Assembly (NCBI GenBank): GCA_004022145.1
Contig: RCNU01000003.1
Strand: one strand, 5' to 3'
DNA from: Paecilomyces variotii
Lineage: Eukaryota
DNA: 64,000 nucleotides
The translations under genes were made by a program, and so were the position numbers. Numbering within the stretch: the stretch's first letter is position 1; each line of letters begins with the position of its first letter. This document shows positions 3,429 to 35,815 of the stretch, one piece after another. The notes under the pieces are model-generated. The model worked only from the letters and a program-made list of their open reading frames with translations. It was not told the DNA's origin and did not search any database.

Positions 3429-5536
3429 TCACGCCATACCTAGCCTTCCCATCCATATCACTTCGTCTCCTTGCATTTCGAGTGCCCGACGCATCATTTC
3501 CGAGTATTCTTGCTCTCGCATCTTTTCCTCTTGTCTAGTGTGTCGTCGTTCTTGACGAGAAACAGGATCAAGGCCATCGTCGGAGAACACTTCGTCGTCC
3601 TCTTCGTCCATGGAGTCGTCGGGATTCGCTGCGAATCTGATACGTCCGATCCGGTCCCCCGTCCACACAAGAAGCTCGTCACCCGTCAGATTTGCACCCG
3701 TAGGGAGAATCTTACGTGCCACATCACCTTCATCGCTGGGATGATTGGGAAATAGTCGTGACCCACTCGTCTCGTCGGAACCTCTCTGCTCGGTAGAGTC
3801 TTGTCGATTCGGAGTCCTAGCATGGTACGAATTGATATTGAATCGACGAACCTCCCCACGTCCATCCCTCTCTACCCACTTGATGTTCCCCTCAGAGTCA
3901 GAATATGCAATCCGTGTCCCATGGGAGGCCACAGAAAGCAGCTTGGAACTGGCGGCACTCTGGCGATTCTGGTATCTTGGCGGTGACAGTGTGGAGGATT
4001 CATTGGACAGCTCATTGTTCGTTTCTGCCGCAGAACAAGTGAGATCGTATAGCGCGAGAGAGCCCTTTCCGTTGTATTCGCCGCACGCAACTATTTTATG
4101 TGATGGTGGCCATGTGGCATCTGATGAGACGGGGAACTTGGGTGCTGGTATCGAAGCTAGCCCGCACAGCCGGCCTCCTGAATGCACCGTGCTCTGCAGT
4201 TGTGGGAAGAAACGGCGGTCATAGGAGAGAATACTGGGGAAGCGCCCGGCCAGCAGAATCGTATTTACATGTGGCGCGGGAGGGTGCAATATCGAGAGAG
4301 GCCCGGGTTGGAAGAGAGGAGCATAGTTGGTGCCCACATCTGACGGATCCGGACTGCGTATGCGATGAGGAGGTTGGCCATCCGCTTGGAGCTGGAAATA
4401 GGGGGAATCGGGTCGTGGGTAGACGCTCGATGCAGACAGGAAAGGAGATGGCTCTCTTTCGCACCGGAGACTGATCTCTGCCTCTTCCTCGCGTGCCGGA
4501 AGCCTAGAATCGTATATGTGTAGACTAAGAGTAGTCGCTAGTGTCAAAGGCACTGAATAATCCGTCTCCTGCGACATGGCAAAGATCGACCACGCATATC
4601 TCTTCTGAGACACCAACCTCAGAGTCTCCAAATCGATCTCGTTGAGGACGTTCCCCACCGCTATGTAGGCCCTCCGACTGATCGAATCGACGCTCATGCA
4701 CTCACCAATATTGGTGAACTCCAAGGTTGTCGTTCTACTCCTTCCTGACGTGTCTGTTAAAAGAACCCCAGGAGCACTGGAACCCACAATCCTCCCTTTC
4801 CGCGTCTGCGTATTGTTGGCGTGCGAATAGTTCAGATCCCAAATGACCACGCCCCCGTTATCCACGGGCGCGACGACCTTATCTTCCCTCGCAGAGCTCC
4901 AGTCCCGAAACAGTCCCATGCCCTTCACATCGCAGAATTCTTTCTTCCGTCGTGACTCGTTGACCGTATAGGGCTGCTGCAACCAACTAAATGAGATGGG
5001 CCCATGCCGGTCGATATACTCCGAATACCAGTCCACATCTTCCGTCTCATACGAAGGATCCCACTCTGCTGCAGCTCTCGACCTCCTGCCCAAGGAGGAA
5101 CGCTGGGCCGTGTGTCCTGTCACTCCACCACCGTTCGATCGTGTCCGGGGTTGGATCAAGAATCGGAGCGAGCCTGGCCCTAGCGAACTAAGCGGCGCAA
5201 CGGAGGATGTATGAAGGCTTTCAGACGCCGGTCGGGCTGAAACTGCATCCGTCTTCGAGGCCCATGATGCCTCGTAGCAGTGCAGCCTCCACAGGTGATT
5301 GTCTCGGGCAAGAGCAAGGAAGCGCCTCGAGACCAGCTGGAGCTGAACCTGCTCTCGCGGAGTAAGATCTGAAAGTGACAGTACATGTATGAGCCTCTGC
5401 AATTCGCAATAGACGTGGGGAGGGAGGTGAGTGGGAAAAGAAGTCCAAGCGGGGGTCGATAACGCCGATATGGAGTGTTTATCTCATACTTACAATCGAT
5501 GATTTTAGAGACGATTTCTACGGGGAGTCTGTCCAT
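3429..5536 (-). CDS. F-box domain protein with a probable beta-propeller-like C-terminal region
   Basis: Exon 5536-5494, intron 5493-5369 (GTAAGT...CAG), then a long exon to 3429. The spliced N-terminus MDRLPVEIVSKIIDYLTPREQVQLQLVSRRFLALARDNHLWR fits an F-box. Confidence 0.8.
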
Positions 5537-5832
5537 GGGTAAAAGAAGGAGACGTTGACGGCTGCCTCCAAGAACAACATGACATAAAGCATATTACGAA
5601 AAAAGAAGAGAGAAGTACTCAAAAACACCAGAGTTCTGACGATAAACATCCCGAGGGGGGTTTATCGCTAACACTGGAGGCGATCCCTTAGTCCAGAACT
5701 TCCCCCGCAGGCGCTGCTGGGCCGCTCGCTTGGACTGGGCCGTCGTCACGTGGCGTTCTCGATGATTGTAGAACATGCTAAACATGGAAAGTTGAGTTTA
5801 TGTAACGAAGAATAGCGCATTACACATAACCT

Positions 5833-5983
5833 GTCAGAGTGGCGGAGTGGTTAACGCGTTTGACTTGAACCCCATGTTTGAGACATCAAATACCTTAGGG
5901 TGCGCAGTATGTATATCTTGCTCTCTTCAAGAGTGACTTCATAAAACTAACAAGTGTTAAGGGTTCGAATCCTGTCTCTGACG
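5833..5983 (+). tRNA. tRNA-Ser(UGA) with a canonical 15-nt intron (5870-5884) and a second 55-nt spliceosomal-type insert in the T stem (5907-5961)
   Basis: Acceptor stem GTCAGAG/CTCTGAC, discriminator G, A box TGGCGGAGTGG, anticodon stem TTTGA/TCAAA with CT-TGA-A loop, Ser-type long variable arm, B box GGTTCGAATCC and a downstream T-rich terminator. Confidence 0.9.
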
Positions 5984-6010
5984 TTTCTTTTTTGTTTTAT
6001 TTTTTATTTA
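5984..6010 (+). terminator. Pol III oligo-T terminator of the tRNA-Ser gene
   Basis: TTTCTTTTTGTTTTATTTTTT immediately follows the discriminator base. Confidence 0.75.
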
Positions 6011-6490
6011 CGGTTTTTTTTCATTTTGCACATCTTCTCTAGTGTCACCTGATAGAGAGTCGAAAATAATAATAATACTCATAGTATGCGATATATTCAG
6101 TTCATTGGGCTGAAAAATATCTGGTCAGCCGGCCATATCTTTCTACTATGCCTAGACCTGTCACGACCTAACTCCTAGGGAGCAATCTAGGAGCTAAACC
6201 GCTGCGCCAGGAAGCAAAAGACTATGTACATAGTATTCTTTGGCTACACCCAAGAACTGCTCTCGCTATATAAGGCTATGATAGGCACTACAAGGCCTAC
6301 CAATTCTGTCAACGAACCAGTTGTTAGTTAATTGTTCTAGAACCAATTATTATAGCTATATTGTAGAGCGGTACAAGCGGTCCACATTGAATCTCGTAAA
6401 TACAGGTCGTACAGCCGTCTCTCCATCATATATCGTACATAAGCCCTCCAATTTAGTAAATGACTGACAAATAGAACCAGAACACCAGTC

Positions 6491-8186
6491 TCAACTATCG
6501 GGTTTATAGATCGCATCCTGGCAGCAAATAGCCACTTTCTTGAAAAATCTTCTCCATTCCAGCGGATCACCTTTGACTTTCAGGAATTCGACCTCGAACA
6601 ATCCCTCCGAGACATACTCGATGACGATCTTGCCCTGCAGCACACACATCCGCTGGTCTTTGGTGGCCACCCGGATTGCGGCAGAGCTGTCTTCGGCAGA
6701 CACGCTGGGGATGGAAGGCACGGGAACCCCAAGCCGGTGGAGAGCTTCGCAAATGAGAGGGATGAGCAGCTTCAGCGCCCAGGCGGAGAAGAAGCGCGTC
6801 ATAGGACGTGATGGAACGATGTCTCGGAACTTCTGGGCCTTCTGGGTGCGACTCAGCGGCACTGATGGGTGCTGGCTGAACTGGGACATCGACGGCTCAT
6901 CTTCGAGACGATCAGCCATGAGGAAACTCTGCGTAGAGGACATGGTCATCGGCTGGGTTGAAGACATGCCATTAGCGGCGAAGTTCGAGGGAGCATCCCA
7001 CTCCATCAGCATATCCCCTGCTGGCATCTCCGGTTGAGTGGACGAAAGCCTGGCTTCGATATCGTTTGCTGACTCGATATCCATCTGGCTGGATGATTGG
7101 GTACCGCTTCGCGAACCAGCGAGAGGATCTTGCGTAAAGTCGATATGGAGCGACTCAAACATGGTGGTGGCCAGGTTGATCGGGTCTCTCAGTCTACCGT
7201 CTGAGGATAGGTACTTGTTAGGACGGGTAAACCACGGGTGTCTCCGAACGTCCTCCATCGAGAATCGGCTGTCCGTATCGATTTTGAGCATCCCTCGCAG
7301 CAGCGACAGGGTAGCCGGCGGTAGCTTTCTCCAGAGTTCGTCCGTCGTCCGCGCATTTTTCTCAACGTACTCACTGAACTCGTAGCTGTTCTCCGTCGGA
7401 CTGTCCCATGGCGTATTACCGGCCAGCAGGACAAAGAGGACTACTCCACAAGACCAGATATCGGCCAGATCCGCACGATATCCTTTACCCTTGGCCTGGC
7501 CCTTGTTGCTACACGTGATCACCTCTGGCGCAATATAGGGAGGGCTTCCACAGAGGGTGGTGCACAGCTTCGTCTTGCCGTTGTATTCGAACACGGTGGC
7601 CAGCCCAAAATCGGCAATCTTCAGGTTGCCGTCATCGGACAGCAATATATTTTCCGGCTTGATGTCTCGATGTCCAACCCCGCGAGAGTGCATATAGCTT
7701 ACCGCGCTGATAAGCTGTGAAAAGTAGACGTGCGCAATGTCCTCACCCACGCCCTCGTCTGCTTCGATCTTGTCGAAGAGATCTCCTCCCTCGGCCAGTT
7801 CCATGGCGATCCATCTCCAGGTGGCATCTTCGCCCGTGTGAAAGAAGGATATGATGTTGTTGTGGTCGCCAATATGCTTATGGACCGTCACCTCCATCTG
7901 GAGCTGACGAGCGCTAATTCGGCCATGGCGAGCGGCATATTCCTTGTGGATGAACTTGACGGCGAAAACAGGGTTGTCTTCGCGGATGGGACAGGCTTTC
8001 TTGATGCTGGCCGTCGCGACGCTTCTGTCAGCGGAGTCTTGCAACAGGCGGTCTGCAAGCCATAGTTAAGTATCCCAATGGGGTGGAGGGATAGACTAAC
8101 CAAGCATAGGCGCCTTGACCGATAGTTCTGGAGACTATCCGGAAGGGCAAGTCCGTTGGCAGCGGGGCGAGTTGAGAGTGATGCAT
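6491..8186 (-). CDS. CHK1: Checkpoint serine/threonine kinase Chk1
   Basis: Exon 8186-8101, intron 8100-8007 (GTTAGT...CAG), exon 8006-6491. Motifs IGQGAYA, FAVKF, GGDLFDKIEADEG, HRDIKPEN, DFG, and the Chk1 C-terminal MTRFFS and KGDPLEWRRFFKK. Confidence 0.95.
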
Positions 8187-34902: not shown

Positions 34903-35815
34903 CTATACCCTGTGAAGGACATATATCCAATGAAAGACCTGCGGCGTATAAGCCGAAGAAGCAGTCTCTCCCGCTGGTGCCTGCAGCGGCGTACGCGAAA
35001 CAACATTCCAATGCTCCGCTAGATACGGAAAGTTATCAAAGCGTATCGTGGAATATGACAGCGCAATCCACGTCGTCCCCCTTTGCGTCAAAGGCACAAG
35101 ATGCAATGCCAGGAGCTCAACCGGAGAGAGCTCAACCTCGCTGATTTCCTTCAGATCCAGAATCTGCCGCACCGTGGGGCATACTTTCGACTGATCATCA
35201 GCGCTGGATGAAGTAAATACTTCCTCCGCGCCTGTCGCAATGGCGTCGCTAGTGCTCTTGTCTAAAATAATCTCGAAAGGAGAAAATTCCCTCAGAGCAG
35301 AGGATAGATCACTCCAAGAGCGCAGATCGGCTTGAACCCAATGCATGGCGTGAGCTGCATCTTTGCCGGATTCGAACTCCTGTCCGAGACGAACGGCTTC
35401 AGAAGAGAAATCGACATTCTTATAACAGAAGTTAGAGAATGATGTTTTCTTGTTTCCTGTTGCTCTGCGGGGAAGGATTCAATTTGAATCTTGGCTAAAA
35501 GAAGAAACTTACGACAATGCCGTCGCCTCTCCATCCACGTTCCACAAACTTATCGCGCAGTTTAGATCCTAATTTCGAGACTCCCGGTCCCAGATGCAAA
35601 ATCTGGGGTCGTCTTTGTTCTCCTGATCCCGACTCGATGGGCTGGCGCTTCTCCAGGTCGGACAAGACGGTCTCAATCAGAGCCTCGCCCGAATTCAACC
35701 ATTCGCCGACATCCTGGCCGGTCGCGAATCTGATATCCCAGAACGCGGGGTCGTCGTAATCCGGGGCACCCTTGATTTTCTTGTTTGCTGCTCTCCTGGT
35801 CGAGGCACTGGCCAT
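34903..35815 (-). CDS. Class I SAM-dependent methyltransferase (METTL13/EEF1AKMT4-like)
   Basis: Exon 35815-35513, intron 35512-35419 (GTAAGT...AAG), exon 35418-34903. Motifs PDYDDPAFWD..F, EWL, ILHLGPGVSKL, NVDFS, WVQADL and ILDKSTSDAI. Confidence 0.8.

Follow-up and report, generated by a model that had tools for sequence, protein, structure and literature searches.

The window analysed here is a stretch of 64,000 nucleotides (nt) on contig RCNU01000003.1 of the mould Paecilomyces variotii (assembly GCA_004022145.1), and the element in question is a gene for the serine transfer RNA (tRNA) tRNA-Ser(UGA), located on its plus strand at 5833-5983, whose anticodon TGA is read directly in the sequence at 5866-5868. 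The gene is interrupted twice, namely by 15 nt at the canonical site after tRNA position 37 and by 55 nt inside the T stem; the latter insert starts with GT, ends with AG, and is precisely what is missing from one RNA contig of a food or fermentation metatranscriptome. Here, I show that the observation of a tRNA-Ser(UGA) gene with two inserts, first made from the letters of the sequence, is confirmed, and that its interpretation as a pre-tRNA needing both the spliceosome and the tRNA endonuclease is supported: the locus is probably a working nuclear tRNA-Ser(UGA) gene of P. variotii (Eurotiales), the T-arm intron of which is removed by the spliceosome.

Anatomy of the gene

The Rfam tRNA model (RF00005) matches 5833-5983 on the plus strand over model positions 1-71 and scores 39.5 bits where the gathering threshold is 29; no other Rfam match occurs in the 64-kilobase (64-kb) window, and the extra bases are set in its alignment as unaligned insertions. 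The gene comprises an acceptor stem, a D stem of 3 base pairs, an anticodon stem-loop, the long variable arm of a class II tRNA, and the discriminator base G73. T-stem positions 51 and 52 are separated by the 55-nt insert, after which come GGTTCGAATCCTGT, the 3' strand of the acceptor stem and then G73. No run of four T occurs anywhere inside the gene, in keeping with the original prediction, which had noted its absence from the insert and the coordinates of which all proved correct on re-reading the sequence. The parts of the gene and of its precursor, in which X18 designates the RNA-labelled sequencing run discussed below, are the following.

5827 to 5832, plus strand: 5' leader of the precursor, at least 6 nt; the leftmost X18 RNA contig over the gene begins at 5827
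5833 to 5869, plus strand: exon 1, tRNA positions 1-37, with the acceptor 5' strand, D arm, anticodon stem 5' strand and anticodon TGA (Rfam, ARAGORN)
5840 to 5850, plus strand: A-box-like TGGCGGAGTGG, read in the sequence and labelled after the known consensus
5870 to 5884, plus strand: canonical tRNA intron of 15 nt after position 37 (ARAGORN, once 5907-5961 is deleted)
5885 to 5906, plus strand: exon 2, with position 38, the anticodon stem 3' strand, the long variable arm and GCA, the first three bases of the T stem (ARAGORN, after deletion)
5907 to 5961, plus strand: putative messenger-type GT-AG intron of 55 nt (sequence, X18 joint, chance test, lack of a bulge-helix-bulge motif)
5962 to 5983, plus strand: exon 3, with the remaining T stem, T loop, acceptor 3' strand and discriminator G (Rfam, ARAGORN)
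5962 to 5972, plus strand: B-box-like GGTTCGAATCC, labelled after the known consensus
5984 to 6005, plus strand: 3' trailer with T runs at 5988-5993, 5995-5998 and 6000-6005, likely terminators of RNA polymerase III (Pol III) (sequence, X18 RNA ends)

At default settings, ARAGORN finds no tRNA in the whole window. Four versions of 5783-6033, with the inserts kept or deleted, were submitted to it by script with introns either disallowed or allowed. With introns disallowed, one version of the four is called, namely that from which both inserts have been deleted, as a tRNA-Ser(tga) of 83 nt in which every stem is paired and the T stem has one G-T wobble. With introns allowed and 5907-5961 deleted, the cloverleaf is perfect, with a T stem GCAGG/CCTGT and a canonical intron of 15 nt, while the intact sequence is forced into a single intron of 68 nt with a poor fold. 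Because a clean cloverleaf is obtained only after removing 5907-5961, the reading with two introns is the structurally sound one. The original prediction had expected a tRNA finder to accept the gene cleanly only upon that deletion, and to miss or mislabel it otherwise; both expectations are borne out by the blank default run, by the 68-nt intron proposed for the intact sequence and by the insertions left unaligned by Rfam.

Splice signals of the T-stem insert

The insert opens with a 5' splice site GTATGT at 5907-5912, which fits GTRNGT at the exon boundary, and carries at 5946-5951 a branch motif ACTAAC, which fits CTRAY and places the branch A at 5950, 11 nt before the insert end; at its 3' site, AAG at 5959-5961, the AG is present and is preceded by an A instead of a pyrimidine. 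A length of 55 nt combined with GTATGT and ACTAAC would be typical of messenger RNA (mRNA) introns in Eurotiales. The ends of the insert can slide by one base only (G5907 = G5962), giving two registers. The role of chance was gauged on 55-mers having the base composition of the local flanks, with the ends fixed by the cloverleaf and both registers permitted: 53 of 3,000,000 random 55-mers matched a relaxed pattern in which GTRNGT is followed by CTRAY, 3-25 nt short of the end, and by a final AG, and the actual GTATGT and ACTAAC are stricter than the pattern tested. The splice signals of the 55-nt insert are well beyond chance.

The mRNA introns of the window itself were sought by a crude scan with free ends, which returned 36 candidates versus 35.5 +/- 5.9 in Markov shuffles, i.e. 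no enrichment; 11 of the candidates are flanked by open frames, measure 43-102 nt and are unconfirmed as introns. A window-derived intron consensus was dropped, the relaxed signals being as common in the window as in the shuffles, and the absence of TTTT was discarded as a sign of selection, for 9 of the 11 candidate introns are also without TTTT. The original prediction had drawn a parallel with a second AAG acceptor at 35419; the position does match a candidate of the crude scan (35419-35512, minus strand), which is itself unconfirmed as a real intron.

An RNA joint across the insert

A run search with 5733-6083 as query returned 20 holders from 11 studies; 6 of the holders are on record as RNA, and all 6 are food or fermentation metatranscriptomes. 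The contigs of three RNA-labelled runs (X16, X17 and X18) and of X6, which is genome-sized and bears the same species label, were mapped on 5500-6400 at 90% likeness. One X18 contig joins 5906 to 5962, thereby skipping exactly the 55 nt with ends GT..AG, at a mean word depth of 191.5; the shorter side of the joint is 28 letters and holds 1 ambiguous base. Unspliced X18 contigs have depths of 771 (5849-5907), 1120 (5878-5946) and 526 (5917-5990), and the joined form makes up roughly 15-27% of the X18 RNA across the 5906/5962 junction. An RNA contig with the junction GCA/GG, to which the original prediction had pointed as a check, thus exists, as a single contig in one of the three RNA-labelled runs.

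No joined form is present in X6, where only 2 contigs mapped and a contig of 18.6 kb runs unbroken through the locus, nor in X16, in which cover is provided by a 42-kb contig, so that the run looks like DNA. In X17 there is no joint either, the cover consisting of one unspliced contig of 164 nt at a depth of 4.7. Since X16 looks like DNA and X17 offers one thin contig, lack of the joint in these two runs is not evidence of its absence.

Neighbouring X18 contigs share 30 letters, with an end at 5907 and new starts at 5878 and 5962; this fits a bubble formed by spliced and unspliced RNA in a word graph of 31 letters. If the bubble reading holds, the spliced RNA would retain 7 nt from the 3' end of the canonical intron together with 8 nt of trailer, and would therefore come from this locus and be a processing intermediate. 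Other X18 breaks at 30-letter overlaps, at 5849-5878 (where depth goes from 145 to 771) and at 5917-5946, are not explained by the bubble; minor variants or stops of reverse transcription at modified bases are possible causes.

Every contig seen retains the 15-nt intron, no joint across it being among the joints listed for any run. Its retention fits an order of events that would start with nuclear removal of the T-arm intron and leave the canonical one for a later step; the tRNA endonuclease of budding yeast works at the surface of mitochondria. A back-joint from 5950 to 5907, as expected of a lariat, is likewise not among the joints listed, though contigs would rarely hold one.

Boundaries of the transcripts

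Depth in X18 is 0 in the bins of 5686-5809, 65 in 5810-5840 and 717-1862 from 5841 to 5995, and falls thereafter to 44 and then 5.7; the transcripts are confined to about 5827-6004, that is, to the tRNA gene and its immediate borders. In X17, which belongs to a different study, the 164-nt contig extends over 5833-5995. Three X18 contigs end after 5991, 6003 and 6004 and continue with 14-21 non-genomic A; by these added A runs the RNA is of the plus strand and ends inside the T runs, 4-5 bases into 5988-5993 and 6000-6005. Pol III terminates in T runs of this kind, in which a poly(A) site of RNA polymerase II (Pol II) would be unusual, and nuclear surveillance is known to add short poly(A) to precursors made by Pol III. 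The intact A- and B-box-like sequences, the lack of internal TTTT, the ends in T runs and a cover limited to 5827-6004 are all consistent with Pol III, albeit not proof of it, and the X18 RNA may well be a Pol III precursor, in part adenylated by nuclear surveillance.

Other interrupted tRNA-Ser genes in metagenomes

Metagenomes were scanned for the combination of a serine-type D loop, an NGA anticodon loop and, 70-100 nt further on, a B box; the scan is blind to splice signals, and its scope is serine-type genes only, so that it says nothing on other tRNAs. A search of metagenomes for exact copies of the 29-nt 5' half had earlier given no match. The serine-type scan returned 64 matches in 59 loci, 56 of which (out of 64) are, according to ARAGORN, an ordinary uninterrupted tRNA-Ser followed by another B box, mostly that of a second tRNA. 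These 56 matches, which account for most of the loci L001-L059, have their second tRNA within a few bases, lie mostly on marine contigs and look like packed tandem pairs. Contigs of prokaryote genomes, scanned for contaminating eukaryotic DNA, gave 2 loci, both of them ordinary tandem tRNA pairs.

Among the other 8 matches, two kinds of non-canonical insert were found; each begins with GT, ends with AG and has a branch motif 10-12 nt before its end. The first occurs in three soil loci that share one sequence (L025, L042 and L048): a tRNA-Ser(AGA) gene has, besides a short canonical intron, an insert of 53 nt, GTCTGT..GCTAAC..CAG, which separates GCAG from GTTCG in the T stem. This position is one base further 3' than that in the window, and the branch lies 12 nt before the end. 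The second is found in L040, a tRNA-Ser(AGA) gene without canonical intron, and consists of 51 nt, GTAAAT..TTAAC..TAG, in the variable arm, with the branch 10 nt before the end. Upon deletion of the inserts, ARAGORN calls a tRNA-Ser(aga) in all four loci; intact, the insert-bearing loci score 40.5-53.2 bits with Rfam. There is no sequence likeness between the insert of the window and the metagenomic ones, and the former does not recur anywhere in the 64 kb of the window or among the 59 metagenome loci.

In L025 (90-142 on the reverse complement; also in L042 and L048) the 53-nt insert is flanked on both sides by CAG/GT, with six equivalent registers, a duplication of the kind left by some mechanisms of intron gain. 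L025 and L048 differ at 6 positions in about 600 nt, all outside the tRNA, so the pair is uninformative on intron conservation. Among named proteins, those nearest to the one encoded beside the L048 gene come mostly from Dothideomycetes, with 53-57% identity; the organism of L048 therefore belongs to a different ascomycete lineage.

A long intron at the canonical site was met in a single sequence only: three identical tRNA-Ser(UGA) genes from the rhizosphere (L016 1048-1181, L028 9533-9666 and L044 1474-1607) have an intron of about 52-55 nt there, and it does not start with GT. A further match, L017 at about 2217-2342, is tRNA-Ser(AGA)-like and truncated, its anticodon stem running into the T arm with no variable arm between them, and is probably a degraded copy.

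Strain variation and neighbouring genes

Between strains, only two differences fall inside the gene in all four runs, a T added after 5913 and a G>A change at 5920, and both are in the interior of the insert; GTATGT, ACTAAC and AG are unchanged in the other strains, and so are the exons. About a dozen more differences occur within 5733-6083, all of them in the flanks. This pattern, from a small sample, points in the direction expected of a functional intron in a functional gene.

The tRNA gene is located in a spacer of about 900 nt between two frames of the opposite strand, an F-box-like open frame (3432-5483, minus) and a protein kinase gene (6494-8065, minus). The F-box-like frame shares 100% identity with a protein of P. 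variotii over 94% of its length, and its next named relatives are from Eurotiales, at 59-64% identity. An entry of 1188 amino acids from Aspergillus oryzae (P0128) matches the frame over 94% at 62% identity and contains kinase domains in addition; the kinase and F-box genes may thus be adjacent in A. oryzae too, and have been merged across the spacer by a gene model.

Two more observations concern the same spacer. At 6158-6218, downstream of the tRNA gene, foreign contigs match a piece of only about 50-60 nt and then diverge (X16 record 4, X17 record 6, X6 record 16), and depth about doubles in X6, as for a short dispersed repeat. Upstream of the minus-strand F-box gene, an X18 RNA contig of depth 136 covers 5549-5685; the 21 letters following 5685 in it are absent from the window at up to 2 mismatches, and the contig may represent a 5' leader exon spliced from outside the window or a strain difference.

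Alternative explanations

A number of observations weigh against a tRNA gene dependent on the spliceosome. AAG is a minority acceptor. The spliced form is a single contig in one metatranscriptome, out of three RNA-labelled runs, and is absent in X16 and X17; the 28 letters of its shorter side are below the caution line of 30, mapping was at 90% and hence below 95%, and joints of this sort in metagenomes are often foreign or due to repeats, while the row that describes this one lists no letters between its sides and states 'between: not known'. Only precursor-type contigs were seen, that is, neither a contig without the 15-nt intron nor a mature form with CCA. The poly(A) tails could equally mark a Pol II transcript or precursors bound for decay, and Pol III transcripts, among which only U6 is known to undergo spliceosomal splicing, are as a rule spliced inefficiently. 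A further Ser(UGA) gene may exist elsewhere in the genome, and a close relative in the food sample, having an uninterrupted gene of the same local sequence, may yield the joint. The last two points lead to the view that the tRNA gene is dead, split by an insertion, and that the source of the joint contig is an uninterrupted tRNA-Ser(UGA), be it a paralogue or a gene of a related fungus in the food sample. X16 does contain other tRNA-Ser genes, with an uninterrupted T arm matching 5962-5994 (loose end CCCGCGCA), and look-alike genes therefore occur in such samples; their variable arm is different, though, whereas the joint contig must match that of the window over at least 28 letters. Among the X18 loose ends listed, none near 5870-5906 or 5962-5990 is that of a diverging paralogue, and the 2 X6 contigs include neither a further exon 1 nor a joined form. 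Moreover, a random insertion would bring the full splice signals in about 2 of 100,000 cases, the exons are constant between strains while the flanks vary, the locus is transcribed strongly and specifically, and two more tRNA-Ser genes have the same kind of insert. A dead gene is, on balance, unlikely.

Granted an RNA joint, it is silent by itself on the enzyme that made it, and the 55-nt insert could be a non-canonical intron of the tRNA type, cut by the endonuclease and sealed by tRNA ligase, in which GT-AG is incidental; multiple and non-canonical tRNA introns do exist in archaea and, among eukaryotes, in the red alga Cyanidioschyzon merolae, as stated in a review on such introns. The bulge-helix-bulge motif was looked for with strict geometry (a 4-base-pair helix flanked by two 3-nt bulges that contain the cut sites) in every register of the junction: the two registers of the window form 2 and 1 of the 4 pairs of the central helix, and none of the 12 registers over the three genes reaches 4 of 4, so that no such motif can be drawn. 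The fungal tRNA endonuclease uses the mature domain as the reference from which it gauges the distance to the anticodon loop, and an insert in the T stem destroys this domain. The full set of spliceosomal signals, at the right spacing, is found in the window and in the two metagenomic cases, yet the long canonical intron of L016 does without the GT start. Taken together, an endonuclease-type intron is very improbable, and these sequence signals, along with the lack of a bulge-helix-bulge motif, point to the spliceosome as the likely catalyst. The intron could also be spliceosomal in a precursor of another nature, i.e. a short, capped and polyadenylated Pol II transcript from which the tRNA is released, given that splicing is normally coupled to Pol II and that X18 contigs carry 14-21 non-templated A after 5991, 6003 and 6004. 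Yet the RNA ends 4-5 bases into T runs, where poly(A) sites would rarely fall, RNA cover begins only about 6 nt before the mature 5' end, the A- and B-box-like sequences are intact with no internal TTTT, and Pol III precursors are known to receive short poly(A); a Pol II precursor is accordingly quite improbable, somewhat less so than an endonuclease-type intron. Finally, the intact sequence is read by ARAGORN, when introns are allowed, as having a single canonical-site intron of 68 nt (5870-5937) and an 85-nt tRNA with a different variable arm. In this reading, T faces T in the anticodon stem, the T stem AAGGG/CCTGT contains one wobble pair and one mismatch, and the variable arm is barely paired; no joint from 5869 to 5938 is listed, and it is contradicted by the sole joint, from 5906 to 5962, so that it is hardly credible.

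Comparison with known systems

Among Pol III genes, that of U6 small nuclear RNA (snRNA) is the textbook exception in having a messenger-type intron, as set out in a review on U6. Such introns are carried by the U6 genes of Schizosaccharomyces pombe and of other fungi (Tani & Ohshima 1989, 1991; Canzler et al. 2016, via the U6 review); according to the same review, they have canonical sites and are otherwise unconserved, experimental validation is still needed in most species, and their usual explanation is reverse splicing into RNA at the catalytic centre. The tRNA-Ser genes described here resemble U6 in being short non-coding genes with an internal promoter of Pol III type, in having an intron with canonical 5', branch and 3' sites that is otherwise unconserved, and in that the insertions are fungal and apparently lineage-specific. 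They differ from it in that the host is a tRNA and not a component of the spliceosome, and the explanation by reverse splicing is not directly applicable; furthermore, the gene of the window also has an intron of the endonuclease type, and its transcription by Pol III is one that I infer.

Spliceosomal and tRNA introns are treated as separate, unrelated classes, each residing in transcripts of its own, in a 2023 tRNA review and a 2025 paper. Along the same lines, the review of non-canonical tRNA introns defines those of archaea, C. merolae and nucleomorphs by strict or relaxed bulge-helix-bulge motifs cut by the endonuclease, and the word stem 'spliceosom' is absent from it. As in these tRNA genes, there is more than one intron here, and one of them lies outside 37/38, in the T or the variable arm; unlike theirs, the insert does not fit a bulge-helix-bulge, and has GT, branch and AG instead. 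The 15-nt intron at 5870-5884 is of the same kind as the canonical eukaryotic intron at 37/38, from which the 55-nt insert differs by its T-stem site and its splice signals.

Bhattacharya et al. reportedly described, in 2000, spliceosomal introns in nuclear ribosomal RNA (rRNA) genes of lichen-forming ascomycetes. The likeness consists in a GT-AG intron within the gene of a stable RNA that is not normally a Pol II product, in Pezizomycotina, and the difference in the host, which is there an rRNA precursor made by RNA polymerase I and here a tRNA gene. A possible source of new short spliceosomal introns in Pezizomycotina is represented by introner-like elements, known in Dothideomycetes and other fungi, from two papers, as multi-copy families longer than regular introns (PMC4457414, PMC3609843); the L025-type insert has CAG/GT on both sides and a Dothideomycetes-like neighbour, whereas the insert of the window, unlike such elements, is single within the 64-kb window and the 59 metagenome loci.

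No report of a spliceosomal intron in a tRNA gene was found in the full-text literature, most subscription journals and supplementary tRNA tables being outside its reach, and the exact phrase 'spliceosomal introns in tRNA' occurs in none of the papers searched; the remark in the original prediction that no standard description of this exists for tRNA stands within the same reach. What is new is a probable spliceosomal intron in a new class of host gene, a novelty to be taken as 'not found' and not as 'proven absent'.

Proposed pathway and implications

According to the proposed pathway, a short transcript would be produced from the internal promoter of the gene, most likely by Pol III, starting a few bases upstream of 5833 and ending in the T runs after 5988. 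The spliceosome would then remove 5907-5961 in the nucleus, joining GCA to GG and thereby creating the T arm; the 15-nt intron at 37/38 would be removed separately by the tRNA splicing endonuclease and ligase; and the usual trimming of the ends and addition of CCA would come last. The spliceosome as catalyst, the polymerase, the order of the two splicing steps and a mature, functional tRNA as the end product are presumed in this scheme.

On a broader scale, there is a somewhat better than even chance that filamentous ascomycetes have an undescribed class of spliceosome-dependent tRNA genes. GT-AG introns would have entered the 3' half of tRNA-Ser more than once, in a Eurotiales mould and a Dothideomycetes-like fungus at or near a CAG/GT-like sequence of the T stem, and in a third organism within the variable arm; the Pol III precursors would be spliced before the endonuclease step, one and the same tRNA would need both systems, and standard finders would undercount such genes.

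If true, this would link two RNA-splicing systems thought to be separate, and short, presumably uncapped Pol III precursors other than U6 could be substrates of the spliceosome. The T stem holds a sequence resembling a proto-splice site, and for this reason the finding would also bear on intron gain. Genome annotation would miss or mislabel genes of this kind, so that apparent gaps in fungal tRNA sets may be artefacts. Such genes would further provide a natural system for the study of splice-site recognition without coupling to Pol II, and of tRNA quality control facing a precursor that has no T arm. For the fungus itself, the supply of the tRNA that decodes UCA would be tied to its splicing capacity.

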